DNA of 64,000 nt from a virus (Duplodnaviria > Caudoviricetes), in the IMG/VR virus record IMGVR_UViG_3300029288_000144, positions 13,464 to 77,463 of that record; one strand, given 5' to 3'. Shown here piece by piece: positions 1 to 18,624 of this stretch. Position 1 is the first letter of the stretch; each line of letters begins with the position of its first letter. The notes under the pieces were generated by a model. That model was not told the DNA's origin, did no database searches, and saw only the letters and a list, made by a program, of their open reading frames with translations. Position numbers and translations under genes: made by a program.

Positions 1-2
1 AA

Positions 3-671: not shown

Positions 672-711
672 GATGATGAAGATTTAAGACGATGATAAAA
701 GGAGAAGAGAG

Positions 712-1425
712 ATGAAAAATACAACATCACTCGAGAACGCTTTGAGATTTAAGATTGAGATGGGGAAGATTTACATTTCGGGGATTTTGGAGTTTAGCGG
801 TGGCGAATATATTGTTCTCGATAATTGTGTTTATAAGGTATCTGAGATAGATTGGAGAAACGGAATTTTGTTATTTAATGTTGGTGGGATTATTGATGTT
901 CGGTGTCATTTGTATTCATGGGAGGATGTTGAAAAGGATATTGGTGAGATTTCTGTTATGAACAAGATGCTGTATATTGCTGATTGTTTGAATTATGATG
1001 ATTTGAAATCTAATTTGAAATTGAAGCATTTTGTTTTAGATTCTTTGTTTAGGGATATTGTTTTTTCTGAAATTTTTGGGAATCATGTTAGGAGTGTTTC
1101 AAGAGATTGTGTTGTTATTAAGAGTGTGACTGGAAAGGACTTAGAGATTTATTTAGATTCTGTTTGTATGAGAAATATGGGAGAGGTTGAAGAGAAGATT
1201 TTGTTTGGTTGTGATAAAGAATGTGTGATGGCGAAAGTTAAAGAAATGTGGAATAGAAGATTTGAAAAATTTAATAAATGGAGAATGATTGGTAAAGATT
1301 ATATATGTCCTTGGCTTGCTGGAGGAATTTATAGTTATGATATTTTAACCGATGAGATTTTTGTATTCTTACACCCAAATAAAAATAGATTCAAAAGATA
1401 TTGGAAGATTTTTCGTGAAGATTGA
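712..1425 (+). CDS. hypothetical protein
   Basis: 237-aa ORF with AAAGGAG SD upstream. Confidence 0.7.
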   Translation: MKNTTSLENALRFKIEMGKIYISGILEFSGGEYIVLDNCVYKVSEIDWRNGILLFNVGGIIDVRCHLYSWEDVEKDIGEISVMNKMLYIADCLNYDDLKSNLKLKHFVLDSLFRDIVFSEIFGNHVRSVSRDCVVIKSVTGKDLEIYLDSVCMRNMGEVEEKILFGCDKECVMAKVKEMWNRRFEKFNKWRMIGKDYICPWLAGGIYSYDILTDEIFVFLHPNKNRFKRYWKIFRED

Positions 1426-1582
1426 ACTTAATGTACTAACTTACAGCGTTTACTTTCATTGTTGTTTTGTGCTGAAATATAAAGGACAATACGAACTAAT
1501 TATCAGCATTTATCATATTGATAAAAAACAAATAGACATTGGACATCGCACCAACAAAAGAAGAATGGAAAAGTTTAAATGA
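1415..1582 (+). CDS. MKI-family micro-protein (55 aa, GTG start)
   Basis: (M)KIELNVL...KRRMEKFK; stop overlaps next ATG (ATGA); the ORF track extends it to 1352. Confidence 0.6.
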   Translation: MKIELNVLTYSVYFHCCFVLKYKGQYELIISIYHIDKKQIDIGHRTNKRRMEKFK

Positions 1583-1770
1583 AAATCAATTTAGAAATAA
1601 GAAAATCCGGACTATTTGAACCTGTAAGAACTGCGTGGTTTTACAGAACTATTATACTCGTTGAATATATTTGGAAAGATAGAATAGAAACTGTTGGTGC
1701 TAAATGTAATCCGAAAAGACTTACAAAGATTGTTAATCGCTGGAATGACAACGGAAATGAAAAATTATGA
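1579..1770 (+). CDS. MKI-family micro-protein
   Basis: MKINLEI...PKRLTKI; ATGA overlaps at both ends. Confidence 0.7.
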   Translation: MKINLEIRKSGLFEPVRTAWFYRTIILVEYIWKDRIETVGAKCNPKRLTKIVNRWNDNGNEKL

Positions 1771-1964
1771 AAATAGAATTATTTTGCGAACATTATTTGG
1801 GGGCAAGAGAATACTGTCTCTTTAGAAAATACAAAAAAGAGAACAAGTTAATTGATAGAATATACTGGTACGAAAAATATAATTTTAATGAAGACCGAGT
1901 TGTATTTGAACTAGTTAATCAAAAAAGATTCGGAAAATATGGCAAAGTAATGGTTATAAAATGA
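1767..1964 (+). CDS. MKI-family micro-protein
   Basis: MKIELFC...QKRFGK; coupled. Confidence 0.7.
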   Translation: MKIELFCEHYLGAREYCLFRKYKKENKLIDRIYWYEKYNFNEDRVVFELVNQKRFGKYGKVMVIK

Positions 1965-2173
1965 AGATTAGAGCGTATTTCACATATAACAACTCCCCTT
2001 CACAAGCCTTAATGGTTAGAAAGTATAAAAACGATACGCATATACATGACCGAATTATGTATGGGTTTTTTCTACTTGATTTCAATTGTTATGATTATTC
2101 GGTTTATGGAAATGTTTGTTTGAGAAGATTTAGGAAATTTCAAAAAAATTGCGAGAAAATAAAATGGAAATAA
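1961..2173 (+). CDS. MKI-family micro-protein
   Basis: MKIRAYF...RRFRK; shares RKYK..DRI core with the preceding ORF. Confidence 0.7.
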   Translation: MKIRAYFTYNNSPSQALMVRKYKNDTHIHDRIMYGFFLLDFNCYDYSVYGNVCLRRFRKFQKNCEKIKWK

Positions 2174-2373
2174 AAACATTCATTTGGAATAAGAATGTAA
2201 TAGGGCAAGTTGATTTTTACATTTGTCGTAGAGTCTATGATATTGGTTCGGTCTATTATATTACCAATAAAGATGAAATGGTTACATATTACAAAAATAA
2301 CAAAGGTGTTGGTTATTTGAATAAGAATGTTAGTGGTAGATTGATTAAAAGATTCGAGAGTACCTTTGTATGA
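2164..2373 (+). CDS. MKI-family micro-protein
   Basis: MEIKTFI...IKRFE; ATG at 2164 preferred over 2149. Confidence 0.6.
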   Translation: MEIKTFIWNKNVIGQVDFYICRRVYDIGSVYYITNKDEMVTYYKNNKGVGYLNKNVSGRLIKRFESTFV

Positions 2374-2588
2374 AAATTAAAGCAACAGTACAAGTAAACA
2401 TCAGTCGTTTTGTTTTTGAAACTGATAGACTCTGGTTTGAATGGTTCTACTATGTTCGCGACAAACCAGATTATGAATTGTGTGTTTTATATTTCTTTGA
2501 TTCCGGCACCATCCAAACAGCATTGAAAAGATTAGAAAATTCAAAAATTATCAAAGTTCATCATTGGGAATATGCGGCGGATAGTTAG
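2370..2588 (+). CDS. MKI-family micro-protein
   Basis: MKIKATV...LKRLE; ATGA overlap. Confidence 0.65.
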   Translation: MKIKATVQVNISRFVFETDRLWFEWFYYVRDKPDYELCVLYFFDSGTIQTALKRLENSKIIKVHHWEYAADS

Positions 2589-2608
2589 ATTATTTTTCTA
2601 AAAACGTG

Positions 2609-2637
2609 TTGCCTTGTGAAAAATAAAAGAGTATATT
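2609..2637 (+). promoter_or_regulatory. sigma70-type early promoter
   Basis: TTGCCT-N17-TATATT in the only intergenic gap of the first array. Confidence 0.55.
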
Positions 2638-2671
2638 AAATAATGCGGAAATTCAATAGTTATTGGAAAGT

Positions 2672-2848
2672 TTGAAAACGTATGTATATCTGGTTCGGAA
2701 AAATAGTTGGGACTCCGATGCTGATGAAATAAAAGCGGCGTATCTTGATTATGATTTGTTGATGAATGAAACAAAATGGTAGCGAGAACATAAAGAAGGA
2801 TATATAAGAACCGCTTGGTATGTTGAAAAAATTGAGGTTAATAAATGA
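2672..2848 (+). pseudogene. small ORF with internal TAG
   Basis: TTG start after GGAAAG; in-frame TAG at 2780-2782; frame continues to a TGA overlapping the next ATG. Confidence 0.45.
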
Positions 2849-3012
2849 AAATAAATCTATATGTAAAAGATTATGGTGGTGGTGTTGTTTTTTCTCAAAA
2901 GCCATGGGGAATTAAAATGAGGATAATATTACAGGCATATTATGAGGGTCGTTATTGTTCAGATTATATCAACGCAAATACAAAACGACTAAAGATAGAT
3001 AGGTTTACGTGA
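2845..3012 (+). CDS. MKI-family micro-protein (55 aa, below ORF-track cutoff)
   Basis: MKINLYVKDYGGG...TKRLKIDRFT; ATGA/GTGA overlaps. Confidence 0.65.
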   Translation: MKINLYVKDYGGGVVFSQKPWGIKMRIILQAYYEGRYCSDYINANTKRLKIDRFT

Positions 3013-3233
3013 AAATAAAAATATTTGTTGCTGATTACAAAAAATGTGTAGCTGCGGCTCATATTAGAAGAGAAAATGAATATTTAGTTTTCGGAAATGT
3101 AGATTATAATTCAATTTACATTGTTGTGTTTCAAAAACCAAAAGAATACTGGATTTCAAATAAGACAAATGTAGACAGATTTAAAAAAATATATGATTGT
3201 GTGAACACCAATGAAAATACAATTAACCGTTGA
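3009..3233 (+). CDS. MKI-family micro-protein (GTG start)
   Basis: MKIKIFV...DRFKKI. Confidence 0.65.
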   Translation: MKIKIFVADYKKCVAAAHIRRENEYLVFGNVDYNSIYIVVFQKPKEYWISNKTNVDRFKKIYDCVNTNENTINR

Positions 3234-3405
3234 TAATGGGATATATAACCAAACCGATTTTGTTAGATTCCACACTAAAGAATCTAAACATTGTTTTTGT
3301 TCACATACGTTATATGAAATGTTCTTCACGTCTTTACTACCATTTAACAAATCCGTCAGAAATCTTAAAAAAGACCGATTTCAAAAAATAGGAGTAAAAC
3401 TGTGA
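3211..3405 (+). CDS. MKI-family micro-protein
   Basis: MKIQLTV...DRFQKI. Confidence 0.65.
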   Translation: MKIQLTVDNGIYNQTDFVRFHTKESKHCFCSHTLYEMFFTSLLPFNKSVRNLKKDRFQKIGVKL

Positions 3406-3593
3406 AAATATCGTTATATGTTTATGATGATGACCAATATACTTATGCTCATTTTTCAAAATCCAAATTATATCCAAAAATTGATAACTATGCGGACTTT
3501 ATAGTTGCGTTTTGTGATTATCCGTGTCTAAGCTTATGTAATGTTGAAAGATTCAAGAAAATTTATCCAACAGCAGAACTCTACGAGGATTAA
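3402..3593 (+). CDS. MKI-family micro-protein (GTG start)
   Basis: MKISLYV...NVERFKKI. Confidence 0.65.
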   Translation: MKISLYVYDDDQYTYAHFSKSKLYPKIDNYADFIVAFCDYPCLSLCNVERFKKIYPTAELYED

Positions 3594-3595
3594 AT

Positions 3596-3793
3596 ATGAA
3601 AATCTATCTTACATTTGATAATACCAAATTATACAAAAACTCTGTTCGTTTACATGCTAACAAAGTATTAAATTATTCGTATGGTCTTGGATACAACGAG
3701 GCTTTGGGTTTTATTGGTTATTTGGGTGATTATGTTTGTGTGTCTAATTGCGGAAGAAAATTAAATGTTACAAGGTTAAATAAACTAAAATGA
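3596..3793 (+). CDS. MKI-family micro-protein
   Basis: MKIYLTF...NVTRLNKLK. Confidence 0.65.
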   Translation: MKIYLTFDNTKLYKNSVRLHANKVLNYSYGLGYNEALGFIGYLGDYVCVSNCGRKLNVTRLNKLK

Positions 3794-3996
3794 AACTATC
3801 AACATATTTAATAACCGACGATGGTAATATACACTTAGCTAGAGATAAAAAAGAAACGCTTAATTATGGCGAAACGGAAAGTAACAATAGGTATTTCATA
3901 GTTGTTTTTATGGAATTTAATGAATTTTGGATTTCTAAACTGTGTAAGGTTCCTCGTTTTATGAAGTGGTTTACGGGACACAATTATAACGACTGA
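3790..3996 (+). CDS. MKI-family micro-protein
   Basis: MKLSTYL...VPRFMK; similar to 3009 ORF (VVF..EFWIS). Confidence 0.65.
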   Translation: MKLSTYLITDDGNIHLARDKKETLNYGETESNNRYFIVVFMEFNEFWISKLCKVPRFMKWFTGHNYND

Positions 3997-4166
3997 AAAT
4001 AAATTTATTTCTTAAAGATTGTTGTTTTTCTCATTATAAGACAGGAACCAATATGTTTATAATACATATGTTGACCTCCATCAGTAGAATCCCAGCATAC
4101 TCGCCGTATATAGAGACATTAAACGTAAGAAGAATCAAGAAAATTCAAAAGGAGTGGAAATCATGA
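3993..4166 (+). CDS. MKI-family micro-protein with probable CTG start
   Basis: CTG-AAA-ATA-AAT-TTA = (M)KINLFLK...NVRRIKK; CTGA overlap upstream, ATGA overlap downstream. Confidence 0.55.
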   Translation: MKINLFLKDCCFSHYKTGTNMFIIHMLTSISRIPAYSPYIETLNVRRIKKIQKEWKS

Positions 4167-5158
4167 ACAGATGTATTTTGATGCGTGGATATCCTGGTTG
4201 TGGAAAATCTACAAGAGCCAAAGAACTATCAGATGAGTTTGGAAACTGTTCAATCGTATCGGCTGATAACTATTGGATTGATTCAAACGGTTTTTACAAA
4301 TTTGATGTTTCTAAATTAAAATTAGCCCACGAATATTGTTACAATGAGTTTAAGAAAGCCATTGCTGCAGGACGAAATGTGATTGTTGACAATACGAATC
4401 TCAAATTTGAAGATTGTAAGAAATATTTCGATTATATTTTGAAGAACAATAATGTAGGAACTCATCGTTACGCAATCGATATTTGTGAAGTTTCTTACAA
4501 CGATTTAGATACAGCGATTTCTCTTAGAAGCAATCGCGAAGATGGAAAGAATATTCCATCTGAAAAGATTCGCGGAATGTATGATATCTTCCGGAAAATC
4601 AATTGTGTTTCGTTGATGCTTTCGAATTACACCAACAAGATTGATTTTGTTTTTCCGAAAGATGTAGTAGAATATAATTGGTTAGAGAATTCTTCAACAG
4701 ATAAAACCAAAAAAGATTGTGTGATTTGTGACCTTGATGGAACTCTATCTATTTTCAAACTTGCGGATGGCACGCTGTTACGAAATGCTTTTGATGCTTC
4801 TACTTGCGAATCGGATTTGATAAACGTTGCTGTAGCTAAAGCTATTTCAGCATTTGAGCTTGTAGGAAACGAAATCATTTTTCTTTCTGGAAGAGAGAAC
4901 AAATACAGAAAAGAAACCGAAGCATTTTTGAATAGAGTTTCGGAAAAATATGGATTGAATAAAAATCACAAACTATACATGAGAGCTGCTGGAGATTTTC
5001 GTTCTGATGATATTGTAAAATCTGAAATCTTTTCAAACAACATCAAAGACAAATATAATGTAGTTTGTGTTTTTGATGACCGACCAAAAGTTGTTCGTCT
5101 GTGGCGTTCTTTGGGGTTGTTTGTTTTTGATTGTAATTACCGTGGAGAGGAATTCTAA
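4163..5158 (+). CDS. pseT: polynucleotide 5'-kinase/3'-phosphatase (T4 PseT-like)
   Basis: P-loop GYPGCGKS, VIVDNTN; HAD DLDGT, LSGRE, DDIVK, FDDRP; ATG 4163 overlaps upstream TGA. Confidence 0.92.
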   Translation: MNRCILMRGYPGCGKSTRAKELSDEFGNCSIVSADNYWIDSNGFYKFDVSKLKLAHEYCYNEFKKAIAAGRNVIVDNTNLKFEDCKKYFDYILKNNNVGTHRYAIDICEVSYNDLDTAISLRSNREDGKNIPSEKIRGMYDIFRKINCVSLMLSNYTNKIDFVFPKDVVEYNWLENSSTDKTKKDCVICDLDGTLSIFKLADGTLLRNAFDASTCESDLINVAVAKAISAFELVGNEIIFLSGRENKYRKETEAFLNRVSEKYGLNKNHKLYMRAAGDFRSDDIVKSEIFSNNIKDKYNVVCVFDDRPKVVRLWRSLGLFVFDCNYRGEEF

Positions 5159-6336
5159 TGGAAACTTTTACTCTTAGAGAATATTTGAATCAGAACTATC
5201 TTAACGACGATTCGGTTGTAGCCGATTTTCATTCCAAGTTTGGTGTGAACGTTTCTAAGTTTGAAAATTATTTCCTTTTCAAATACGACCAAATTCTCGC
5301 TAATTGGAATGACCCGATTGTAAAAGAATGTCGTGGAACCATTCTTCAGAAAAATGAAACGTGGGAATATGTTTCTATTCCGTTTAGCAAATTCTTCAAT
5401 CTACAAGAAGGACGATGCGAAATCTTTTCTTTTGTTGAATTGAAGTTGGTTGAAAAGATCGACGGTTCGTGTATTCAAGTTTGGTTTGATGGAAATAATT
5501 GGAGAGCATCTACGCTTGGGAGCATTCAAACCGCGAATGTTTTTGATTGGCAGTTTACGTTTTCTGAGTTGTTCTGGAAAATATTCAACAACTCAGGTTT
5601 GAAAAAAGAAATGTTGATTCCTGGATATACTTACATTTTTGAACTGTGGAGCAAATACAATCAGGTTGTTACTCGTTACAGTGAAGAAAAGATTGTTTTG
5701 CTGGCTATTAGAAACAACAAGACTTTTTCTTTGACAGATTTTTCTAATGAACAAATTCAAAAAATGTTTGGGTTTGTTCATCGTCCAATCTTTCTTGAAA
5801 ACAAAGTTGGCTCTAAAGAAGAGTTGATTTCTCTGGTTGAGGAATTAGCAAAAGACGAAGTCCGTTTTGGAAAGATTCCCGAAGGTTTTGTTGGTTATGT
5901 TTCGGGAAGACCCGTGTGTAAAATCAAAAATGAGAAGTACTGTCAGACTCATAGAATTCTAACTGGAGATAAAGCATTCGTTTTGAAGAATGTGGTTGCT
6001 TCCGTTTTTTGTGGAAATGTTGATGACATCTACGGAGATTTGACCGACGAACTAAAAGAATTCGTTGATAGATTGAAAGAAAAGATTAGACAAATTATTG
6101 ACCAGTTGAACGGGGTTTCATATCAATTATTTTTGATGGATAACAAATTCAATGCGAAAGAATATGCTCTCAAAGTTCAAGAATTAACAAATAACGAACT
6201 GTTAATGTTTCGTGGATTTCTGTTTGATAAGAAAAAAGAAATATGTGAAACAGGAAACATGCGAGATTTGTTTCTTCCGTGGATTGTTAATGGAAACAGA
6301 TACGAAAAGAATTTGGATTTTTGGAGAAATGTATGA
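5158..6336 (+). CDS. rnlA: RNA ligase 1 (T4 RnlA-like)
   Basis: KFFN, motif I EKIDGS, YIFEL, LLAIRN, EGFV, KIKNEKY; adjacent to Pnk. Confidence 0.88.
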   Translation: METFTLREYLNQNYLNDDSVVADFHSKFGVNVSKFENYFLFKYDQILANWNDPIVKECRGTILQKNETWEYVSIPFSKFFNLQEGRCEIFSFVELKLVEKIDGSCIQVWFDGNNWRASTLGSIQTANVFDWQFTFSELFWKIFNNSGLKKEMLIPGYTYIFELWSKYNQVVTRYSEEKIVLLAIRNNKTFSLTDFSNEQIQKMFGFVHRPIFLENKVGSKEELISLVEELAKDEVRFGKIPEGFVGYVSGRPVCKIKNEKYCQTHRILTGDKAFVLKNVVASVFCGNVDDIYGDLTDELKEFVDRLKEKIRQIIDQLNGVSYQLFLMDNKFNAKEYALKVQELTNNELLMFRGFLFDKKKEICETGNMRDLFLPWIVNGNRYEKNLDFWRNV

Positions 6337-6968
6337 ATGAAGTAAAATACCCAAGAACATATCACCTTCCTTATTCTCCCGGAAGCACTAATGATGATAA
6401 AAAGTTTCCAAACGATTCTCACCTAATCGAAAAAGAAATTGTTCTAACTTTAAAATTAGATGGCGAAAATTGTTCGTTGACCAAAAATAAAATTTGGGCT
6501 AGGAGCTTAGATTCTCAAAACCACCCAAGTAGAAATTGGGTCAAGAATTTTTGGGAAAACATTCGTTATGATATTCCGGATGATTTAAGAATTTGCGGCG
6601 AAAATTTATACGCAAAGCATTCAATCTATTATGATGAACTACCAAGTTATTTCATATGTTTTAATATTTGGCGCGGCGATGAATGTTTAAGCTGGAAAGA
6701 AACAGAAGAATGGTGCAGTTTGATAGGATTAGAAATAGTTCCGGTTGTTTATCGCGGAATCTATTCAAAAGAGATAATATTAAAAGAAGCTACGAGTTCT
6801 GAGAAAATATTTGGCGGCGAACGCGAAGGAATTGTCGGAAGAAATCCTGAAAGTTTCAACTACGAAAATTTCAAAGAAAATACATTTAAATGGGTTAGAA
6901 AAGGACATGTCCAAACAACTCAACACTGGATGTATGACAAAATCATTCCCAACAAGTTGAAAATATGA
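6333..6968 (+). CDS. second ATP-dependent RNA ligase (Rnl2-like family)
   Basis: YPRTYHLP, KLDGEN, ICGEN, REGIV, KWVR nucleotidyltransferase motifs. Confidence 0.8.
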   Translation: MNEVKYPRTYHLPYSPGSTNDDKKFPNDSHLIEKEIVLTLKLDGENCSLTKNKIWARSLDSQNHPSRNWVKNFWENIRYDIPDDLRICGENLYAKHSIYYDELPSYFICFNIWRGDECLSWKETEEWCSLIGLEIVPVVYRGIYSKEIILKEATSSEKIFGGEREGIVGRNPESFNYENFKENTFKWVRKGHVQTTQHWMYDKIIPNKLKI

Positions 6969-7279
6969 AAATACATCTGAAAGTTGAAGTATCAAAATAT
7001 GTAGGAAAACGAAGAGTGTATAATCATTTTTTAGATTTAGGAGATTTTGAAATAGTTTACGTCTTTGAAACCGATGACTATTTTGAAGATACTGTATCTG
7101 ATTATATTTCAAACTGGAAAAGATTAGAAATAAGTAAAACAAAACCAAAAATTGTTACGTGGATAACTCCTTTCACAAATGAGGTGTTCACAAGTTTCAA
7201 TTCAACTGATGACAACAACGATTACATTACAACATATATGGAAGATAACAAAAGAATGATGAAATGGAAAACAAGATGA
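6965..7279 (+). CDS. MKI-family protein (104 aa)
   Basis: MKIHLKV...KRMMKWK; ATGA overlap. Confidence 0.6.
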   Translation: MKIHLKVEVSKYVGKRRVYNHFLDLGDFEIVYVFETDDYFEDTVSDYISNWKRLEISKTKPKIVTWITPFTNEVFTSFNSTDDNNDYITTYMEDNKRMMKWKTR

Positions 7280-7558
7280 AAACACTTAGGGGTTAACAAC
7301 ATTTTTCTAACATCTCGCAGAAGGGTGCTGTTACCTATTTTTCCAACGTTTTAACGAACAGTAATAGATAAAGACATATTGTATTTCTTTAATGTTTAAG
7401 ATATGTTAAAGTCCGATAGAATATGGGTTTGAAGAACAAAAATTAAGTTAAAAATGATAACAAATATGTCGTAAAAATCTAAACATTGTTGAAATAGAAA
7501 GAACTGCTTGAAATATTTTTGCGACAGATTAAAATAGAAGAAGAAAGAATAAAGCGAC

Positions 7559-7726
7559 ATGAAAATAACTTTGAAATATAATGGAATGTTTGGAACGTGG
7601 AATAGAATTTTAAAACAAGATAACCCCGATTCTTTAATTTTTCAGTCTGGATATAAACACTCAGACTTGATGGCATGGAATCGTATAAACAGACCTTTTG
7701 CTAAACGTTTTATAAAATGGCTGTGA
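7559..7726 (+). CDS. MKI-family micro-protein (55 aa)
   Basis: MKITLKYNG...AKRFIKWL; hand-translated. Confidence 0.6.
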   Translation: MKITLKYNGMFGTWNRILKQDNPDSLIFQSGYKHSDLMAWNRINRPFAKRFIKWL

Positions 7727-7729
7727 GAT

Positions 7730-7930
7730 ATGAAATGCGAATTAAAATTAGATAAAACCTCGTGGAGTTTTTCGCCAAAATACAATACCAAAAACGGAAA
7801 TGGAATATCCGTTGGTTTTATTTCCGGCAATCCATACGCATATTGGAGCAATCAAAATTCTCCATTCGCAATTCTAAAACGATTAAAGATAAAATACGAG
7901 TACAAAGGAATAATATGCCATACAAACTAA
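7730..7930 (+). CDS. MKI-like micro-protein
   Basis: MKCELKL...LKRLKIK. Confidence 0.6.
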   Translation: MKCELKLDKTSWSFSPKYNTKNGNGISVGFISGNPYAYWSNQNSPFAILKRLKIKYEYKGIICHTN

Positions 7931-8217
7931 AACATAGAGAAACGGGATTGTATTGGAAAGGCTCGTCTCAAAAGCCTCTTGAAAAAGGGGAGATGAATAA
8001 ATTGTGCTGGAGCAAGAACGGGAAGTCTTGGAATCAAAAAGGTCATTTAAGTTCTGCTTTAACAAATGTGCTTCGGCCAGAATATATTAGAGGAACTAGT
8101 TTCGAAGATTATTCCAAGAGTGAAGTATTGTATGGTTGGTTTGAAGAAAACTGCGTTGTTGAATATTATGAAACTCCAAAAGAAATCAATTTCTCAGATT
8201 TTAAGAAATTGGATTGA
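7915..8217 (+). CDS. conserved phage hypothetical protein
   Basis: MPYKLKHRETGLYW...WSKNGKSWNQKGHL; ATG 7915 after AAAGGA. Confidence 0.6.
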   Translation: MPYKLKHRETGLYWKGSSQKPLEKGEMNKLCWSKNGKSWNQKGHLSSALTNVLRPEYIRGTSFEDYSKSEVLYGWFEENCVVEYYETPKEINFSDFKKLD

Positions 8218-8218
8218 T

Positions 8219-8434
8219 ATGAAAATTAAACTTTGGGTTGTGGACCGAAATAGATATCACAACATTCATTTTGGAACCGATATGTATTATTCGGCAGGAT
8301 ATTACGATTATTTAGATTTTGGTGGAGTTTTTGTTTTCAACCCTAAGAAATATGAAAATTTACTATATAGGCTAGACAAATATTTTCCCGAAAGTAATAT
8401 TAAAAAATATGAAAATTTACTTAAAAATAAGTAG
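8219..8434 (+). CDS. MKI-family micro-protein
   Basis: MKIKLWV...; true start inside track ORF 8066..8434. Confidence 0.6.
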   Translation: MKIKLWVVDRNRYHNIHFGTDMYYSAGYYDYLDFGGVFVFNPKKYENLLYRLDKYFPESNIKKYENLLKNK

Positions 8435-8579
8435 ACGATATCATGAAACCGCTTTTATTTTCAACAAGAGAATAAATCTTTCAAAACATTTGACCGTAAT
8501 TTATGATTCGGTTGGAAAAGTTTTCGCTTCAAATTTATCAAACTACAAAAATTACAAAAGAAGGTTGAAACTTAAATGA
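8409..8579 (+). CDS. MKI-family micro-protein (56 aa)
   Basis: MKIYLKISRR...YKRRLKLK; hand-translated; ATGA overlap downstream. Confidence 0.6.
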   Translation: MKIYLKISRRYHETAFIFNKRINLSKHLTVIYDSVGKVFASNLSNYKNYKRRLKLK

Positions 8580-8791
8580 AAATATTATTAAAAGTAAATA
8601 AAGAATATTCAGAATATGAATTTGTATTGTATCGTAAATATACAAAACGAAAACCAAAATTTATTATTCGCTATTTTGCTAACGAAATAGAAAATCTTCA
8701 TCTTATGATACCTTACGACAAATACAACATCTACAAAAACAGATACAGAAATATAGAAAGAAGATTAAATTTGGAGATTCATAAAGTATGA
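8576..8791 (+). CDS. MKI-family micro-protein
   Basis: MKILLKV...LYRKY...ERRLNL. Confidence 0.65.
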   Translation: MKILLKVNKEYSEYEFVLYRKYTKRKPKFIIRYFANEIENLHLMIPYDKYNIYKNRYRNIERRLNLEIHKV

Positions 8792-8976
8792 AGTTACTAA
8801 TTCGATTTGAAAACCGTTATTCCGATCCTTATTGTTGTTGGTGCCGATGCTGGTTTTTGTTTGATAGAAGAATAATACGTTCGGATTTGGCGCAAAACCC
8901 AATCAGAATTCTTACCACCCAACAATACAATGGAGAAAAAATTAAAAAATATACAAACAAAAGGATTCGGTTATGA
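8788..8976 (+). CDS. MKI-family micro-protein
   Basis: MKLLIRF...NKRIRL; ATGA overlaps. Confidence 0.6.
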   Translation: MKLLIRFENRYSDPYCCWCRCWFLFDRRIIRSDLAQNPIRILTTQQYNGEKIKKYTNKRIRL

Positions 8977-9176
8977 AGATAAAATTGCGGTGTTTGGGTA
9001 ATTTGCGTGGTTACTCGTTCGCTCTATATAACCAAGAAAGAGTCGTATTACAATATTTTGCGTCCAAATTAAAACCAATATATTTGGTTTATGTCATGTC
9101 ACAACGTCACAAAAAAGAGATAAAACACGCTGCATTTCTCCGTCGAATGAAAACAACAATCCAATCACAATTATAA
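8973..9176 (+). CDS. MKI-family micro-protein
   Basis: MKIKLRC...LRRMK. Confidence 0.65.
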   Translation: MKIKLRCLGNLRGYSFALYNQERVVLQYFASKLKPIYLVYVMSQRHKKEIKHAAFLRRMKTTIQSQL

Positions 9177-9391
9177 AAATAACATTTAGAATATTTTTAA
9201 ACAACGAGAATAACTTTTTGTATTTTAATTTTGGAAAGAGTTATGATAGATCGAATGTTGTATTCCTTCCATATCCCGAATTAAACCAAAAATCTTGTAA
9301 CCTGAACGGAATTAACGATTTGGATTTTACGAAAACAAAAAGCCGCTACATTAGGTTATGTAAGCGGCTTAAGATAAAAATAATTGATTGA
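9173..9391 (+). CDS. MKI-family micro-protein with probable ATA start
   Basis: ATA-AAA-ATA-ACA = (M)KITFRIF...CKRLKIK; ATAA overlap with upstream stop; no ATG in frame. Confidence 0.5.
   Translation: MKITFRIFLNNENNFLYFNFGKSYDRSNVVFLPYPELNQKSCNLNGINDLDFTKTKSRYIRLCKRLKIKIID
9340..9370. terminator. hairpin at junction of convergent transcription units
   Basis: AAGCCGC-TACAT...ATGTA-A-GCGGCTT inverted repeat with A-tract on the left. Confidence 0.55.
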
Positions 9392-9400
9392 ATTGATATT

Positions 9401-9820
9401 TTATCTAACCGGAACTATCAATTCTTTATCAACTGCCTGTTTATACTCTTTACTATCTTTTTTCAAATTAAACAAATCGATAAACGATAATTTTTCTTTA
9501 CCTGGTTTTCTCAATTGAGCGATGTCTAAACCAAGTAACGAATCTATTTTCTTTCTATAAGCTCGGTAATTTGCGTCTGGTTCGGCAGATGCGCTCGGTT
9601 TCCATCGTTTCATTACTTCTTTCTGATGAGGTTCTTGTTTCGTAGTGTCATCAATTGCTAAGAAAAATGCCAATTTGATTTCGTCAAGAGTGTATTTAGT
9701 CAAATCAATTCCTACTTTCTCCAAATCTTTCATAGTTTTTTCAATAGCATCAAAATTGATAACATCTGTCCGACGAGCCATCTCATTTAATTCTGTATCA
9801 ACCCATTCACGCAAGTTCAT
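9401..9820 (-). CDS. putative head-internal protein B2
   Basis: MNLREWVDTELNE leader; paralog of 10101..10580 (GIDL.KY, WKPS..EPDANYRAYR). Confidence 0.7.
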   Translation of the reverse strand: MNLREWVDTELNEMARRTDVINFDAIEKTMKDLEKVGIDLTKYTLDEIKLAFFLAIDDTTKQEPHQKEVMKRWKPSASAEPDANYRAYRKKIDSLLGLDIAQLRKPGKEKLSFIDLFNLKKDSKEYKQAVDKELIVPVR

Positions 9821-10104
9821 TTGTATCTCCAAAATTTATAAGGAATGTTATAATCAACCAAAGCATTTCTCTTGTCATTTGTGTGTAATGTCCATTTAGA
9901 TACGTTTAGTGTTCTTGCTGCTTGTGATGCATCACCTTCCGCAGAATTAAGATGAACAATATACGCTAAAACTTTTGCCCCATCTTCAAACAGATTATCA
10001 AGATTTATATTCTTATGTTTCAAAGCCGCCGCCAAATCAAATGTTTTTGTGACATCAACAACCGCTTCATTTAATTGCTGTTCTGTATATTCTTTGAAAT
10101 TCAT
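9817..10104 (-). CDS. putative head-internal Fis-like HTH protein A2
   Basis: MNFKEYTEQQLNE leader; EGDASQAARTLNVSKWTL helix-turn-helix. Confidence 0.65.
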   Translation of the reverse strand: MNFKEYTEQQLNEAVVDVTKTFDLAAALKHKNINLDNLFEDGAKVLAYIVHLNSAEGDASQAARTLNVSKWTLHTNDKRNALVDYNIPYKFWRYK

Positions 10105-10580
10105 TCTTCTTCTCCAGCCATTTTGACACGACCTTGTTTCTGTTCTTTTTCAAACTTTGTTCCTGGCTGGATTCCTTTTAGAGATGAGAACGAAGTGTTA
10201 ACTCTATGCGGACGTTCTCCAGCAATTGGATTAGGAACCAAAATCTTGTTAATTTCTTCGACATTCAATTTCAGAAGTTTCATCAACTTGTCTCTGTAAG
10301 CACGATAGTTAGCATCCGGTTCCGATTTAGAGCTTGGTTTCCAATACTTCATAACTTCGGCTTGATGTTTTGGAGACTCCCCACGGACAATTTCATCAAG
10401 ATAGAAAAAGAAAGCGGATGTAATTTCATCAAAAGAATATTTACTCAAATCAATTCCTGCGGATTCAAGTTCGCTCATTGTCTTTTTAATGGCGTCCAAA
10501 TCAACTAAATCTTTTCTAAGAGCCATTTCATTCAGCATCTTCTCTTCAACTTCTTTATCAATTAGTTTTACCAAATTCAT
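10101..10580 (-). CDS. putative head-internal protein B1
   Basis: leader ending MLNE; paralog of B2. Confidence 0.7.
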   Translation of the reverse strand: MNLVKLIDKEVEEKMLNEMALRKDLVDLDAIKKTMSELESAGIDLSKYSFDEITSAFFFYLDEIVRGESPKHQAEVMKYWKPSSKSEPDANYRAYRDKLMKLLKLNVEEINKILVPNPIAGERPHRVNTSFSSLKGIQPGTKFEKEQKQGRVKMAGEEE

Positions 10581-10876
10581 TCTTTAATCCTCCACAACTC
10601 TTCTGGAATTTCAAGAGCAACCAACGGATTCTTCTTTGGGTCTTTAGAATGAAGAGTAGCTCTATCTTTTCCTAACGAATCTGCGGCTTTTGCTAAATTT
10701 CCTTCAAACGCTTTGATGTGCGAAAGATACGCTAAAACTTTTACACTATCTTCGCTCAAACGCTTTGACAATTTAGCTTCAACTAATTTGTCTCTTAATC
10801 CTAAAGCCTTGTTAACATTGATGGTTGCTTCTGATAAAACACCAATTTCTTTTTCAATAAACTCTTTTAAGTCCAT
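10577..10876 (-). CDS. putative head-internal Fis-like HTH protein A1
   Basis: MDLKEFIEKEIGVLSE leader; EGNLAKAADSLGKDRATLHSK fits the Fis/HTH_8 pattern; ATG 10876 follows late promoter and GAGG. Confidence 0.65.
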   Translation of the reverse strand: MDLKEFIEKEIGVLSEATINVNKALGLRDKLVEAKLSKRLSEDSVKVLAYLSHIKAFEGNLAKAADSLGKDRATLHSKDPKKNPLVALEIPEELWRIKE

Positions 10877-10893
10877 AATAACCTCTTTAGAAC

Positions 10894-10900
10894 TATTTAG
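10894..10900 (-). promoter_or_regulatory. T4-like late promoter CTAAATA
   Basis: followed by GTTCTAAAGAGG SD and ATG. Confidence 0.65.
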
Positions 10901-10912
10901 GAACAAAATCAA

Positions 10913-11110
10913 ATGAAAATAAATATGACAGTTGAAAAAGAACAGGAAAATTATTGGATTGTTAGATTTTTTTTGCCCATCATCCAATCAGATAGAACTT
11001 GTTTAGTTGGGCAATGGTTTCCAAGAGAAGTTGGTTATTTTATTCCCAAAATTGGCCGATACATATTTACAAAGTCAGCTAAAGACATGAGAATTTCCAA
11101 TCATAAATAG
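10913..11110 (+). CDS. isolated MKI-family micro-protein
   Basis: MKINMTV...; between divergent late promoters. Confidence 0.5.
   Translation: MKINMTVEKEQENYWIVRFFLPIIQSDRTCLVGQWFPREVGYFIPKIGRYIFTKSAKDMRISNHK
11102..11109 (+). promoter_or_regulatory. T4-like late promoter CATAAATA
   Basis: followed by GTTCTAAAAGAGG SD and ATG 11132. Confidence 0.65.
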
Positions 11111-11131
11111 TTCTAAAAGAGGTTAACTACT

Positions 11132-11974
11132 ATGGGATTTAAGGATTGGTTAAATGAAGAAGTTGATGTTGCTTCTGCTCTAAAAGAGAAGGCTGAAAAA
11201 GGTCTAAACATCAAGACTAAGTTCGGAACATTCAAGTTTGACAAGATGGACAAGAAGAAGTATGTCTTTGTTCTTGATGGAGATGATAAAGACATTTCTG
11301 TTGTTGTTGCCGAAAAACCCAATGAGAAATATCTTGACCTAACAATTTCTGTTTTCAAAAAGGATTCGCTTGTCGGAAAACGCAAATCTGCTCCGGATGA
11401 CGATTCCGAAACACAATATCTAAAAACAGATATTACTCGTAAGGCTGCAAAAGATATTAAGAAAGCTGTTGAAGAAATTCTCGGTTCACTTAATGAAGAT
11501 GAACTAATCACGCTCGATGAAGATTTTGGAGCAACCGCACTTGCCGCAGCTCTAATTCCCCTTGTCATTGGTTCTATTCCAGTTCTGAACAAAGCAGCTC
11601 ACGAATATAATTGGTTCGGAATTGCTAATGAAAAAGAATCTAAAATCAAAACTATCGATGACATTAAAGAAAAGATTCAGAAGTTCTCACTCAAACAGAT
11701 TCAAGAAATTCTAAAAGACGAAAAGAAAGCAGATGCGATTGTTGATGAGCTTTTAGATACAATTAAGAAAGAATCTCCAAGGTTTATTGTTAATCCTAGA
11801 ACCAAGGCAGAAATCTATGACCAAGTTCTTTTCTATCTTAGGAGAAGTGCAGAAGCTAAGAGCAAAGAACCCGTTGCTAAAGGAATGACTCCTGTAAAAG
11901 ATGCCGCGAAAGATGCTCTCGCTCGGTCGTCTGGTTACAAGAAAGGCGGCGTTTGGTTCGGAACTCAAAATTAA
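11132..11974 (+). CDS. putative head-internal (ejected) protein
   Basis: MGFKDWLNEE leader, internal LNE/LDE sites, hydrophobic GATALAAALIPLVIGSIPVL, late promoter. Confidence 0.7.
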   Translation: MGFKDWLNEEVDVASALKEKAEKGLNIKTKFGTFKFDKMDKKKYVFVLDGDDKDISVVVAEKPNEKYLDLTISVFKKDSLVGKRKSAPDDDSETQYLKTDITRKAAKDIKKAVEEILGSLNEDELITLDEDFGATALAAALIPLVIGSIPVLNKAAHEYNWFGIANEKESKIKTIDDIKEKIQKFSLKQIQEILKDEKKADAIVDELLDTIKKESPRFIVNPRTKAEIYDQVLFYLRRSAEAKSKEPVAKGMTPVKDAAKDALARSSGYKKGGVWFGTQN

Positions 11975-11992
11975 GTTAGGCAAAAACATCTA

Positions 11993-12021
11993 TTGACAAT
12001 GAAGCCTTCCGGTGGTATATT
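11993..12021 (+). promoter_or_regulatory. sigma70-type promoter overlapping an inverted repeat
   Basis: TTGACA(11993-98)-N17-TATATT(12016-21). Confidence 0.75.
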
Positions 12022-12040
12022 CAATCGGAAGGCTTTCTTT
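12002..12040 (+). terminator. intrinsic terminator-like hairpin
   Basis: AAGCCTTCCG / CGGAAGGCTT perfect 10-bp stem followed by TCTTTT. Confidence 0.6.
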
Positions 12041-12157
12041 TAGACTCTCTTTGGAATAAATCATTGAAATATTGAACAACTGAAAAATTAGAAAGATTTA
12101 TTAGGACTGGACATTTAAGCCACGATAAAATAAAGGTAACCAAGAGAGGTGGCACAT

Positions 12158-12571
12158 ATGAAGTTAAACACAGAGTATTCAGGAACAATTGCAAAGCATT
12201 CGTCGGCAACAAGAACCATTGTCAATTCCGACCCAAAGGAAGTGGTTCGCGTTTCGCAGATTAAGGTAAAGATTGATTATCAGCCGGGAATGCTTGATGA
12301 TATTCTTGTTGGAGATGACCAAACAATTGCAGATGCTAATACTTACAAAACTTGTTCGTGGGACCAGCGAGTCGGAAGTTATGAATTAGAAATTAACGAA
12401 ACGGCTCTTTGTGTTGTCATTAACAAGATTGACAGAAAGAATAAAGACGAAATGACCCAGGAATTGTATATTACCTTTGAAACAGCGGATGTTGAAAAGG
12501 CAGGATTCGTTGGGCATTATCTTCGTGACAAAGACAATCCAGCAAAACTTACTCTCAAAAATCTGGAATGA
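12158..12571 (+). CDS. hypothetical protein
   Basis: ATG 12158 after GAGGTGG SD. Confidence 0.7.
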   Translation: MKLNTEYSGTIAKHSSATRTIVNSDPKEVVRVSQIKVKIDYQPGMLDDILVGDDQTIADANTYKTCSWDQRVGSYELEINETALCVVINKIDRKNKDEMTQELYITFETADVEKAGFVGHYLRDKDNPAKLTLKNLE

Positions 12572-13131
12572 ACCAAAAAATAATTGATAAAACATTAGAG
12601 TTAAATCTATTCAAACCGAGCAAGAAAGTAAGCAATTACTTTCTTGTTTATCAGGGCAATCCATTCTCTACATCGTATTATTTCACCGAATCAATCCCGT
12701 TTCATTACTTCCAACATATTTGTTTGGCGTTGACATATTCAGAAACATTTATGGAACTGTGTGAATTCCGAGAAACAATTAAAAACTTATCATGTCCAAT
12801 GGTTGTTTCAAACAAAAACAAAATCCATCTTGATAATTTTTCTATTCTAAATTGTCAAAAAGATTGCGAGTGTGGAGCGTTCTCTCGTTTTTGGATTCGA
12901 ACTAAGATTGAGAAAAATCTTATAATTTCTCATAGTTCACACTTTTCAAGAATGTTAAACGAATTGACCCCAAGTAAACAAACGTTGCTTATTAGAACCA
13001 ATACATATAATAACAAATTCAAATATTTCGAATGTAGTAAACCATGTTGTTATGACTTTGAGATGAACAACTTCCAAGAAAATATTCAATTGCTTATTGA
13101 ATTCACTAAACTATTCCTGGTAAAGAAATGA
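12568..13131 (+). CDS. hypothetical protein
   Basis: 187-aa ORF, ATGA overlaps at both ends. Confidence 0.65.
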   Translation: MNQKIIDKTLELNLFKPSKKVSNYFLVYQGNPFSTSYYFTESIPFHYFQHICLALTYSETFMELCEFRETIKNLSCPMVVSNKNKIHLDNFSILNCQKDCECGAFSRFWIRTKIEKNLIISHSSHFSRMLNELTPSKQTLLIRTNTYNNKFKYFECSKPCCYDFEMNNFQENIQLLIEFTKLFLVKK

Positions 13132-13346
13132 AAATATTCTTACACATTACAGATTCTTATCAATTTGTTTTTCACAATCATCCAAAATTTAATGACCGCG
13201 ATCGCCGATATTCCATAACAAATTGCCTATGGATAACTTCCGAAGAGCTTGATTTGGAAGAAGAATTTTGGTATCTACCTAACGAAACAAATCAAAATCT
13301 GAACCACGGATATGAAACTTTCAAACGAAGAATGAAATTGAAATGA
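13128..13346 (+). CDS. MKI-family micro-protein
   Basis: MKIFLHI...FKRRMKLK. Confidence 0.7.
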   Translation: MKIFLHITDSYQFVFHNHPKFNDRDRRYSITNCLWITSEELDLEEEFWYLPNETNQNLNHGYETFKRRMKLK

Positions 13347-13543
13347 AAATAAATTTATACATAAAAAACGATAATTTCTTTTTTGGAAAACCTTTTAGTA
13401 TGCGTGAAGTTTTACGAATTGATTCCGGGGAAATTACAGAGAATAAATTATATATTCCCAAAACATGCGACTATTATATTTCCGATGAATTAATTGAAGT
13501 GTATCATAACTTTGCTAAAAGAATGAAAATGAAAGTTCACTGA
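13343..13543 (+). CDS. MKI-family micro-protein
   Basis: MKINLYIK..FFFGK...KRMKMK; close paralog of next ORF. Confidence 0.7.
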   Translation: MKINLYIKNDNFFFGKPFSMREVLRIDSGEITENKLYIPKTCDYYISDELIEVYHNFAKRMKMKVH

Positions 13544-13740
13544 TGAAAATAATATTAAAACAACATAGAGGTAATTTTTGGTTTGGAAAATCGCCCAAGC
13601 TTAATAGAGTTTTAATTGTAGACAACGGCGAAATTTCAAAAAATAGTTTTTACATTCCATATGAATCCGAATGTTTTCCAATTCTAACTTCTTACATCAA
13701 ATTCACCAAAAGAATGAAACTAAAAACAAGAGGTGTCTAA
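13543..13740 (+). CDS. MKI-family micro-protein
   Basis: MKIILKQ..FWFGK..VLIVDNGEISKN..YIP..KRMKLK. Confidence 0.7.
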   Translation: MKIILKQHRGNFWFGKSPKLNRVLIVDNGEISKNSFYIPYESECFPILTSYIKFTKRMKLKTRGV

Positions 13741-13744
13741 AACG

Positions 13745-14229
13745 ATGAAAAAAAAATTAAATTTGTAGTAGAATCATACAAGAAGATTGAATCAGACTTA
13801 GGATTTTCTGTCCAAGCTGTTATGAATATGGTTCAGTCAGGAATTCAACAAGCAACTGGGTCACAAAAATCCGGAGATGTTTATGAATTCAAACTTCTAT
13901 TCCCATATCATCAAAACGAACAAGTGACAAAAATGGTGAAAGAATTCAAAGATGTTTTCATCACCAATTCAAAACAATATCAATTTGATGATAATACCGG
14001 AGTTCTTGTTATTCATACAATTCCTTCCGAAGAAAAAGAAAAAGCTTGTAAGAAATTGATTCAACAGATTCTTGATAAAAATGATTTACAAGCTCTTTTG
14101 TTGATTAAACATCCGGATGATTTTGTTGCTAAACTCGCAGGAATGAAAATTAAGTATTTTGACAAGCAAGAATTCCAGACGGTAGAATCTTTGTTTCAAA
14201 ACGACATGCTGGATTTATATGAAGATTGA
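13745..14229 (+). CDS. hypothetical protein; SD-linked ATG out of frame across an A9 tract
   Basis: GAGGT SD + ATG 13745, A9 at 13748-56; long frame is -1 relative to the ATG; track start 13822. Confidence 0.55.
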
Positions 14230-14557
14230 TTTGTTATCTTTCAATGAGACAAATGTTGGTTTAGCAGCAATTGCCTACAAATGGGATATTTTGTTGTCAA
14301 ATAAAGAATACTACGAAGTCAAAAAGAAACTTCCGGAATATTTTCAAAATGGAGTTTCTTATTTGTTCGTAAAAGATACATTCAAAGATATGTATGTTCT
14401 AAGAGTTCACGCATATTTTGAAATCACTCCATTCAATTCAAAAGAACATGCTGAGAAATATATGTCGGATGATAATGTTTTTCTGCTGTATTCTAAACAT
14501 CCTATGATGGCTGAGTTGAATGATATTCGCTATACATTGATTCAAGTAGGAGAATAG
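14219..14557 (+). CDS. hypothetical protein (MKI-like N-terminus)
   Basis: 112-aa ORF in operon. Confidence 0.65.
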   Translation: MKIDLLSFNETNVGLAAIAYKWDILLSNKEYYEVKKKLPEYFQNGVSYLFVKDTFKDMYVLRVHAYFEITPFNSKEHAEKYMSDDNVFLLYSKHPMMAELNDIRYTLIQVGE

Positions 14558-14560
14558 ACA

Positions 14561-15259
14561 ATGAAGAAATTCAAAAGGTATACAGAAACGGGTTTGGGAA
14601 TCTCCAACAACGGAAGACTTCTTTATCCAAATGAGAATCAATTCACCCACATGTCCGCTGTGAATATTGGAGATTGTATTTTCACAGGAATTTCACCATA
14701 TCAACCACCGTATATTTCTTTAGATTATGTGTGGATTGTAGAATCTCTTCCAATTATTAAAGGGGATGTGTGTTGTTTTGATGTTAAAAATATTAAAACC
14801 AACAAAACAAGTAAAATGTTTACAACCGATTTTAATTATCATATTGCTAATTCTCCGATACAACCAACTAAAGAATATTTGAGTTACAACAAATTAACGC
14901 ATGAACAAGTTGAAGAAATACTACAAGAAAAAACATATGATAAAATCAAGAAAGAATATAAAGAACTTCCAAAAAGTAGTTTGAAAGATTTCCCTGATTT
15001 TGGTTATTATTTTTATGAACATACTAGCAAATACTACAAAGAAAAACACTGTATACACGTATCAAAATTCGGAATCTTTGAATACGCACATCAAGTTGAC
15101 TTAATTTCAAACAAAGTATTAAAAGGTAGTTGGAAGAAAAAATCAAATACATTGTTTACATATTTTACAAATACCAAATTCGAATTTTTCCGCAATTATG
15201 ATAATTTGACATTTTCATATGATGTGTTTCCTAAATGTATTGTTGATAAGGTAGAATAA
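14561..15259 (+). CDS. hypothetical protein
   Basis: 232 aa, AGGAG SD. Confidence 0.7.
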   Translation: MKKFKRYTETGLGISNNGRLLYPNENQFTHMSAVNIGDCIFTGISPYQPPYISLDYVWIVESLPIIKGDVCCFDVKNIKTNKTSKMFTTDFNYHIANSPIQPTKEYLSYNKLTHEQVEEILQEKTYDKIKKEYKELPKSSLKDFPDFGYYFYEHTSKYYKEKHCIHVSKFGIFEYAHQVDLISNKVLKGSWKKKSNTLFTYFTNTKFEFFRNYDNLTFSYDVFPKCIVDKVE

Positions 15260-15262
15260 ACA

Positions 15263-15535: not shown

Positions 15536-15547
15536 GGATTAGAAATC

Positions 15548-18611: not shown

Positions 18612-18616
18612 AACTA

Positions 18617-18624
18617 TATTTATC
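18617..18624 (-). promoter_or_regulatory. T4-like late promoter GATAAATA
   Basis: exactly 5 nt upstream of ATG. Confidence 0.6.

Follow-up and report, generated by a model that had tools for sequence, protein, structure and literature searches.

We analyzed a window of 64,000 nucleotides (nt) from a virus genome fragment (bases 13464-77463 of a 77.5-kb IMG/VR contig), focusing on an array of 27 small plus-strand open reading frames (ORFs), here called micro-genes, between positions 1415 and 14557. The array is probably a plastic early-gene region of a T4-like phage that holds ~25 real genes, all from one lineage-restricted, basic, aromatic-rich protein family of ~60-70 residues. These proteins keep similar ends while their middles have diverged almost beyond recognition. 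Below, we describe the layout of the array and the evidence that its members are genes and kin, and then consider how whole genes are gained and lost in a sister lineage and what the proteins might do.

An earlier note, made from the letters of the window alone, had described about 27 such ORFs, and our ORF listing and reading of the junctions recover 27 at the same positions. They fall into three runs (13 ORFs at 1415-4166, nine at 6965-9391, and three at 13128-13740), plus two single ORFs at 10913 and 14219. Members are 55-74 amino acids (aa) long, except those at 6965 (104 aa) and 14219 (112 aa). ATG is the start codon in 22 cases, GTG in three (1415, 3009, 3402), CTG in one (3993), and ATA in one (9173). 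As had also been proposed, the common junction is a 4-nt stop/start overlap: 15 of the 27 member starts share an exact NTGA-type overlap with the upstream gene. Six others overlap by 1-26 nt, three are placed 1-3 nt past the preceding stop, and three are free-standing (2845, 7559, 10913). A single unbroken chain of coupled genes spans both the micro-genes and a set of RNA-repair enzymes, of which the polynucleotide kinase-phosphatase (PNKP) and an Rnl2-type ligase are coupled by the same overlaps. The fixed ends described earlier are present in ~25 of the 27 ORFs: these begin MK(I/L)-x-hydrophobic and have, close to the C-terminus, the basic motif N-x-x-R-[FLM]-x-K; what does not hold is that the motif is always terminal, as it lies 0-24 residues before the stop. 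The members are listed here, with scores from a leave-one-out hidden Markov model (HMM) of the family where these are informative; L003 is a contig of the sister lineage.

1415-1582, plus strand: member, GTG start, MKIELNV...KRRMEKFK; 11-nt overlap with the end of the gene at 712; leave-one-out HMM score 11.5 vs a shuffle maximum of 8.4
1579-1770, plus strand: member, MKINLEI...NPKRLTK; ATGA overlap
1767-1964, plus strand: member, MKIELFC...QKRFGK; ATGA overlap; paralog of 1961 and 1415
1961-2173, plus strand: member, MKIRAYF...LRRFRKF; ATGA overlap
2164-2373, plus strand: weak member, MEIKTFI...LIKRFES; 10-nt overlap upstream; leave-one-out HMM score not above shuffles
2370-2588, plus strand: member, MKIKATV...ALKRLEN, then a 15-aa tail; ATGA overlap
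2845-3012, plus strand: member, MKINLYV...TKRLKI; free-standing after a 257-nt gap
3009-3233, plus strand: member, GTG start, MKIKIFV...NVDRFKKI, then a tail; GTGA overlap
3211-3405, plus strand: member, MKIQLTV...KDRFQKI; ortholog of L003 5754 (43% identity)
3402-3593, plus strand: member, GTG start, MKISLYV...NVERFKKI; GTGA overlap; ortholog of L003 7158 (38%); AlphaFold model
3596-3793, plus strand: member, MKIYLTF...VTRLNKLK
3790-3996, plus strand: member, MKLSTYL...KVPRFMKW; ortholog of L003 8166, including 49 nt at 82% DNA identity
3993-4166, plus strand: member, CTG start, (L)KINLFL...NVRRIKKI; CTGA overlap; ortholog of L003 8795 (39%)
6965-7279, plus strand: member, 104 aa, terminal NKRMMKWK; ATGA overlap with the upstream ligase gene
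7559-7726, plus strand: weak member, MKITLKY...AKRFIKWL; free-standing, the 280-nt gap before it containing a sigma70-like site (7508-7535)
7730-7930, plus strand: weak member, MKCELKL...ILKRLKIK
8219-8434, plus strand: member, MKIKLWV...NIKKYEN
8409-8579, plus strand: member, MKIYLKI...YKRRLKLK; 26-nt overlap with the upstream gene
8576-8791, plus strand: member, MKILLKV...IERRLNLE; ATGA overlap
8788-8976, plus strand: member, MKLLIRF...NKRIRL; ATGA overlap; atypical codon usage
8973-9176, plus strand: member, MKIKLRC...FLRRMKT; ATGA overlap; atypical codon usage
9173-9391, plus strand: member, ATA start, (I)KITFRIF...CKRLKIKIID; ATAA overlap
10913-11110, plus strand: isolated member, MKINMTV...; leave-one-out HMM score 11.1 vs a shuffle maximum of 5.2; weak match to L003 6865
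13128-13346, plus strand: member, MKIFLHI...FKRRMKLK; ATGA overlap
13343-13543, plus strand: member, MKINLYI...AKRMKMKVH; ATGA overlap; AlphaFold model
13543-13740, plus strand: member, MKIILKQ...TKRMKLK; 41% identical to 13343
14219-14557, plus strand: doubtful member, 112 aa, MKIDLLS start; sigma70-like site at 14159-14188

The ORF at 14219 is a doubtful member, being acidic and lacking the C-terminal motif, and those at 2164, 7559, and 7730 are perhaps doubtful as well. Two further observations concern the makeup of the runs. An ORF of ~100 aa at about 7927-8217 (MPYKLKHRETGLYWKG...) sits within the array, has neither family end, and is a non-member. The 104-aa ORF at 6965-7279 has an internal NWKRLEISK near residue 55 and a second motif, NKRMMKWK, at its end; its sequence suggests an in-frame fusion of two family units, perhaps through loss of a stop/start junction.

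To all appearance, the small ORFs are coding genes. Plus-strand ORFs of at least 55 aa number 12, 10, and 3 in the three runs, vs means of 0.4, 0.5, and 0.1 in shuffled sequence. The start motif NTGAARATH occurs 29 times in 13.4 kb vs 5.1 expected; 22 of the 29 are member starts, and the remaining contig is at background. The MK[IL] start is found in 18 of 29 plus-strand ORFs of the array region and in 2 of 82 on the remainder of the contig (Fisher p = 2e-11), so these starts, which the earlier note allowed might be no commoner than in AT-rich phage genes generally, are in clear excess over the other genes of this contig. Finally, for 25 of the 27 members, the in-frame codon table derived from the phage's large genes gives a better fit than any of five off-frame tables.

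The sequence also suggests how the genes may be expressed. No canonical T4 late promoter (TATAAATA) was found on the plus strand in 1-16000. Promoter-like (sigma70) sites are not enriched overall (81 vs 67.8 +/- 9 in shuffles), with plausible ones upstream of 7559 and 14219, and terminator-like sites number 6 vs 5.4 +/- 2.4 in shuffles. The micro-genes would be transcribed in long early or middle operons. A Shine-Dalgarno-like core precedes 8 of 27 members vs 15 of 25 late-region genes. Most members would be translated through termination-reinitiation at the NTGA overlaps, and reinitiation there would account for the persistence of CTG and ATA starts in coding-like frames.

Searches with known families tell little about these proteins: among Pfam, PHROG, PADLOC, and PDB sequences, no family was matched by more than one member and none at a curated cut-off. 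Relationships among the members themselves are more informative. The strongest BLAST pairs within the window are 13343/13543 (41% identity), 3009/3790 (39%), and 1767/1961 (32%), the same neighbors that had been singled out before. Members are linked in chains, and 8 of the 10 best pairs lie no more than four genes apart, as expected from local duplication followed by divergence. Across 50 members from the window and the sister lineage, BLAST gives 16 links at E<1e-3, vs 0-2 in full shuffles and 0-1 in shuffles of the middles only; because the middle-only shuffles give so few, the links rest on real similarity in the middles.

Family-wide relationships were assessed with profiles. The leave-one-out family HMM recognizes 21 of 27 members at full length, and hhalign of six sub-cluster profiles returns full-length alignments with probabilities of 25-63%. 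In a decoy test (20 decoys per protein, with the ends kept and the middle shuffled), real proteins outscore their own decoys against the HMMs of other sub-clusters (Wilcoxon p = 1.4e-7, although the tested pairs are not independent), and 13% beat all 20 decoys vs 4.8% expected. The earlier note had called the middles almost unalignable except between neighbors. Most of the family-wide similarity is in the two ends; alignments of the middles are obtained in small sub-clusters only, and a weak but significant signal runs through the whole family. Altogether, the BLAST links, HMM, and decoy test bear out the proposed family of very diverged paralogs with conserved ends. We read the small ORFs as probably one such family with a few doubtful members, and its members appear to form a very diverged paralog network that arose mostly by local duplication.

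We modeled two members with AlphaFold2, using a 40-sequence family alignment as input. The 3402 model has a predicted local distance difference test score (pLDDT) of 68, with a hairpin at residues 5-18 (strands 5-10/13-18) at ~85 and a short helix over VERFKK. The 13343 model has a pLDDT of 60, with a hairpin at 5-14 (strands 5-8/11-14) and a long helix (48-65) that covers the basic motif. Across both models, the N-terminal hairpin scores 75-86. This makes a common hairpin-plus-helix frame plausible, in which an N-terminal beta-strand or hairpin (MKI-x-hydrophobic-x-hydrophobic) would be paired with a C-terminal R-[FLM]-x-K helix. The models do not bear out the idea of one scaffold displaying variable surfaces, as both are confident only for the N-terminal hairpin and C-terminal helix. 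A Foldseek search of the 3402 model against BFVD and PDB returned nothing at E<=0.001, the model being too weak for this to carry much weight, and ESM Atlas yielded no credible look-alike for 3009 (own model pLDDT 0.49) or L003 5240.

In composition, the proteins are basic and aromatic-rich: the median isoelectric point (pI) is 9.7, K+R make up 17% vs 10% in the large genes, and F+W+Y make up 16% vs 10.6%. The earlier note had offered a library of anti-defense or host-takeover inhibitors as one thing that the array might be; DNA-mimic inhibitors of defense systems are acidic, and in this respect the array proteins differ from them. They may be small proteins that bind to targets in the host or to nucleic acids and that are maintained under selection that is diversifying or relaxed.

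The phage that carries the array is evidently a distant, uncultured T4-like myovirus, since the contig has PHROG matches to tail sheath, baseplate wedge and hub, and large terminase, and the terminase is 36-40% identical to those of T4-like cyanophages and rhizobiophages. GC content is ~31%. The DNA comes from a landfill metagenome, and identical low-depth fragments are present in a second landfill study. The window sequence recurs, identical over 20.2 kb, in a 305,169-bp ENA metagenome contig, and therefore the phage genome is at least 305 kb. Two observations come from the source data. The Logan assembly of the probable source run has a 9-nt in-frame deletion relative to the window at 8602, inside member 8576. 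The junction at 13311-13357 (KRRMKLK/MKI) has a 47-nt copy with 3 mismatches on an 86-kb contig from the same landfill run at similar depth, and other parts of the 305-kb genome, or a relative that co-occurs with it, may have further members.

The family is narrowly distributed. An exhaustive profile search of 1.84 billion representative proteins gave nine matches, all from this phage or the L003 lineage; 13343 alone matched only itself among 5.8 billion proteins; and a 27-member profile with a word prefilter found only the phage's own genes. Likewise, megablast of the array against GenBank phages gave no match, a PNKP-based search for related loci in IMG/VR found no relative, and the KRRMKLK/MKI junction had no exact-pattern match in IMG/VR. 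PNKP homologs, by comparison, are numerous. The closest (81% identical) is on L003, which has ~20 MKI micro-genes upstream of PNKP and more after the T4 Rnl1-type RNA ligase (Rnl1). The array is absent from relatives with PNKP at 57-69% identity (L004-L008 and one contig without DNA), and these have the gene order PhoH, two unrelated small genes, PNKP, Rnl1, Rnl2-type ligase, NAD ligase. Because matches occur only in two lineages and the relatives that bear the RNA-repair cassette are without the array, the family is one that has expanded recently and within narrow limits, around RNA-repair genes that form a conserved backbone.

Comparison with L003 shows how fast the array changes. Only PNKP and Rnl1 can be aligned between the window and L003 as DNA, and PNKP has 77% nt identity with synonymous sites saturated. 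Four PNKP-adjacent micro-genes have collinear orthologs in L003 with 30-43% identity, vs 81% for PNKP and 66% for Rnl1, so the micro-genes evolve several times faster than the neighboring enzymes. The stretch from these four anchors to PNKP contains 13 extra genes in L003 and one in the window. Some features of L003 have no counterpart here. Four longer MKI-start members (95-133 aa) lie at L003 4546-5548 and 6865-7161; those at 4952, 5240, and 6865 have an extra C-terminal module ending G-[EL]-[IV]-x-x-K-[ET]-[FW]-[LA], and none like them was seen in the window. A LAGLIDADG-type homing endonuclease (weak Pfam match; L003 11005-11961, minus strand) lies between PNKP and Rnl1 and is absent from the window.

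The earlier note had proposed a paralog accordion, with the shared junction sequence as possible microhomology for gain and loss. Close relatives within the sister lineage do differ in this way, whole genes being gained or lost at the ATGAARAT start of a member. Two near relatives of L003, the contigs L009 and L010, came out of the profile search. Contig L010 (5.4 kb) is 88-96% identical in DNA to L003, and the two differ by seven whole-gene indels in 5 kb. For three of the seven, the conserved gene start itself supplies imperfect 16-23-nt repeats (AAATGAARATT...), and the breakpoints lie inside them:

Between the ATGs of L003 4546 and 5240: two-gene indel at the gene-start repeat
Starts of adjacent paralogs L003 5545 and 5754: one-gene indel of exactly one 209-nt unit at the gene-start repeat
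Ending at the start of L003 7961: three-gene indel at the gene-start repeat

In the remaining four, the breaks fall within spacers or the ends of genes. A further joint is seen in contig L009, where a 95% match to L003 begins 2 nt before the ATG of 5240; upstream of this joint, L009 has a different gene, a homolog of the window's left-flank gene at 712-1425. In L010, positions 835-1123 are a frameshifted remnant of L003 6161 that shares MSRIL.IFNNEKF and then diverges, apparently a decaying cassette. The pooled ratio of nonsynonymous to synonymous substitution rates (dN/dS) between L003 and L010 is 0.61, with several genes >1 on small counts.

In the sister lineage, whole genes are thus inserted and deleted, often through recombination between the conserved first 16-23 nt of different members. 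The conserved gene start would do two jobs, as a structural element of the protein and as the homology patch that drives the accordion. It is possible, and we put it forward only tentatively, that the first ~20 nt (~7 residues) are a dual module of protein handle and DNA recombination joint, which gives the phage a self-shuffling library of host-targeting or counter-defense proteins. The handle and the C-terminal helix would hold the hypervariable middle, and the built-in joint would let the phage duplicate, delete, and swap binder genes without a dedicated recombinase or an intergenic cassette.

The genes that the array adjoins are as follows:

712-1425, plus strand: left-flank gene, non-member, 237 aa; 40% identical (E 9e-37) to the gene immediately upstream of the L009 array; no Pfam match
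4163-5158, plus strand: PNKP; PF25109 133 bits, PF13671 41 bits; ATGA overlap with the array; 81% identical to L003 PNKP
5158-6336, plus strand: T4 Rnl1-type RNA ligase; PF09511 58 bits; 66% identical to the L003 copy
6333-6968, plus strand: Rnl2/DraRnl-type RNA ligase, nucleotidyltransferase domain; PF09414 116 bits

The protein encoded at 712-1425 is ~57 aa longer than its L009 ortholog, and the extension terminates in the family-like NKNRFKRYWKIF; possibly a member has become joined to the flank gene here. The PNKP, Rnl1, and Rnl2-type ligase are all above Pfam cut-offs, so the array does wrap a genuine RNA-repair cassette, as had been claimed. The PNKP, Rnl1, Rnl2-type ligase, NAD ligase, and PhoH genes that the array wraps or is flanked by are conserved in relatives. 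In T4, the polynucleotide kinase-phosphatase PseT and RNA ligase 1 counter the PrrC anticodon nuclease. Here, PNKP, Rnl1-type, and Rnl2-type genes are likewise present, inside the array and coupled to it, but unlike in the T4 pathway, the cassette is conserved also in array-free relatives. The presence of the cassette had earlier been said to fit an anti-defense island. Because distant relatives keep the cassette without the array, the two are not functionally tied; the cassette is the backbone around which the array grew and no evidence for what the array does. The neighborhood of these enzymes varies among relatives in other ways. In L004 (11883-12395) and L007 (11015-11527), whose PNKP is 67% identical, a full homolog of translation initiation factor IF3 (IF3_N + IF3_C) adjoins PNKP; a search of this phage's 77-kb contig turned up no such homolog. 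In the more distant relative L006, a PolyA_pol/CCA-adding-type nucleotidyltransferase and a WGR-PARP-like gene (17988-20993) lie downstream of the RNA-repair genes.

Several other explanations of the array have to be weighed. There is practically no chance that the ORFs are merely open frames that arise in AT-rich DNA and are no genes at all; gene callers did omit some members in the 305-kb assembly, but ORF density, the NTGAARATH excess, the MK[IL] excess, and codon usage all contradict this reading, and reading frames are kept in diverged orthologs. A more substantial alternative, which we nevertheless judge quite unlikely, is that most of the ORFs are unrelated ORFans whose common ends are convergent and imposed by translation. 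On this account, AAA or AAG at codon 2 and an A-rich start would favor reinitiation, and the purine-rich K/R tail would be the ribosome landing site for the next gene. It draws on the fact that the family-wide signal is located in the ends, that most members have no pairwise partner, and that the junction is the best-conserved DNA between distant members (e.g., 62 nt at 73% identity, 8548 vs 13315). Yet both ends are conserved at the protein level. Codon 2 is AAA in 32 cases and AAG in 13, codon 3 is ATT in 20, ATA in 21, and ATC in two, about 40 of 47 members have hydrophobic side chains at residues 5 and 7, the C-terminal motif lies at varying distance from the stop and is present even where no member follows, and non-family genes at identical overlaps start without MKI (PNKP begins MNR and the ligase MNE); we therefore take the ends to be constrained as protein. 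Convergence is also hard to reconcile with a conservation that extends into a confidently predicted hairpin and with the cross-cluster signal in the middles.

Two alternatives accept the family and assign it another role. It is unlikely, although less easily set aside, that the members are small nucleic-acid-binding proteins of the RNA/DNA chaperone or modulator type that work with the RNA-repair enzymes rather than as inhibitors of host proteins. Their high pI, their enrichment in basic and aromatic residues, and the operon shared with PNKP and two RNA ligases would fit, but no nucleic-acid-binding family was matched, relatives retain the cassette without the array, and ~25 fast-diverging copies are hard to square with a single conserved ligand. 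It is very unlikely that the N-terminus serves as a targeting signal for proteins that would be packaged and injected. T4 internal proteins are expressed late and have an N-terminal capsid-targeting leader that ends in a [LI]-x-E prohead-protease site. A common N-terminal tag on diverse small basic proteins resembles this, and the earlier reader saw T4-like leaders on other genes of the phage. Against it, the plus strand of 1-16000 lacks a late promoter, the alignments have no conserved [LI]-x-E cleavage site or Glu after the MKI strand, and the prediction makes the tag a structured hairpin that is part of the protein. We also considered whether the MK-hydrophobic start and the basic tail could be a ClpX-type degron, and dropped this because the basic motif often lies far from the C-terminus.

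The reading of the array as one diverging family that gains and loses genes at the gene start also has points that weigh against it. BLAST links cover only 18 of 50 proteins, and some of the 32 that have no pairwise partner are possibly unrelated genes with acquired ends. When the leave-one-out HMM is restricted to the middles, it recognizes 3 of 27 members, which is chance, and in both AlphaFold models the middles have low confidence, with everything outside the hairpin strands below pLDDT 70. A dN/dS of 0.6 is equally given by relaxed constraint. The gene-unit indels come from the sister lineage, and no close strain of the window's own array was available for comparison; metagenome contigs matched to 1-16000 gave no credible cassette deletion, only joints with 21-nt sides, which we take to be repeat or foreign matches.

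Much of the genome of a large phage consists of uncharacterized small genes, and the origin and turnover of such sets are poorly understood. Comparison of strains in the sister lineage shows directly that whole genes are gained and lost through recombination in the coding gene start. The ~25 natural variants on one small frame are a compact set for screens against host targets or defense systems, and the CTG and ATA starts at stop/start overlaps are natural cases for studies of reinitiation.

Among known phage proteins, a possible structural analogue is the LSm-like family of the T4 early proteins GoF, MotB.1, and Frd.2, for which a common N-terminal beta motif and a bent five-stranded sheet have been proposed (PMC12152347). 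Like the array proteins, these are small T4-type early-region proteins with dissimilar sequences. Compared by their description, they differ in being single-copy and longer. The LSm-like five-stranded sheet is not recovered in our AlphaFold models, in which the two-stranded hairpin is the only confident part.

At the level of the locus, the closest comparison is with the hyperplastic regions of T4-type phages, in which modular shuffling is mediated by PeSLs, each of which combines, within an intergenic spacer, a strong sigma70-like early promoter with a stem-loop terminator (PMC2839356, PMC4122927). As in those regions, a block of small non-core ORFans lies between conserved genes of a T4-like genome, and close strains (here, of the sister lineage) differ in whole genes via short boundary repeats. 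The shuffled genes here are paralogs of one family, whereas PeSL genes are unrelated ORFans. Most junctions here have no intergenic DNA, and promoter- and terminator-like sites are not enriched. Assignment to the PeSL type fails on its defining feature because the joint is coding sequence, the gene start itself (NTGAARAT and about 10-15 nt more), and includes neither a spacer nor a promoter or stem-loop. In our reading, the array is a T4-type hyperplastic region in which genes recombine at a joint made of coding sequence, and both the family and the gene-start joint are new.

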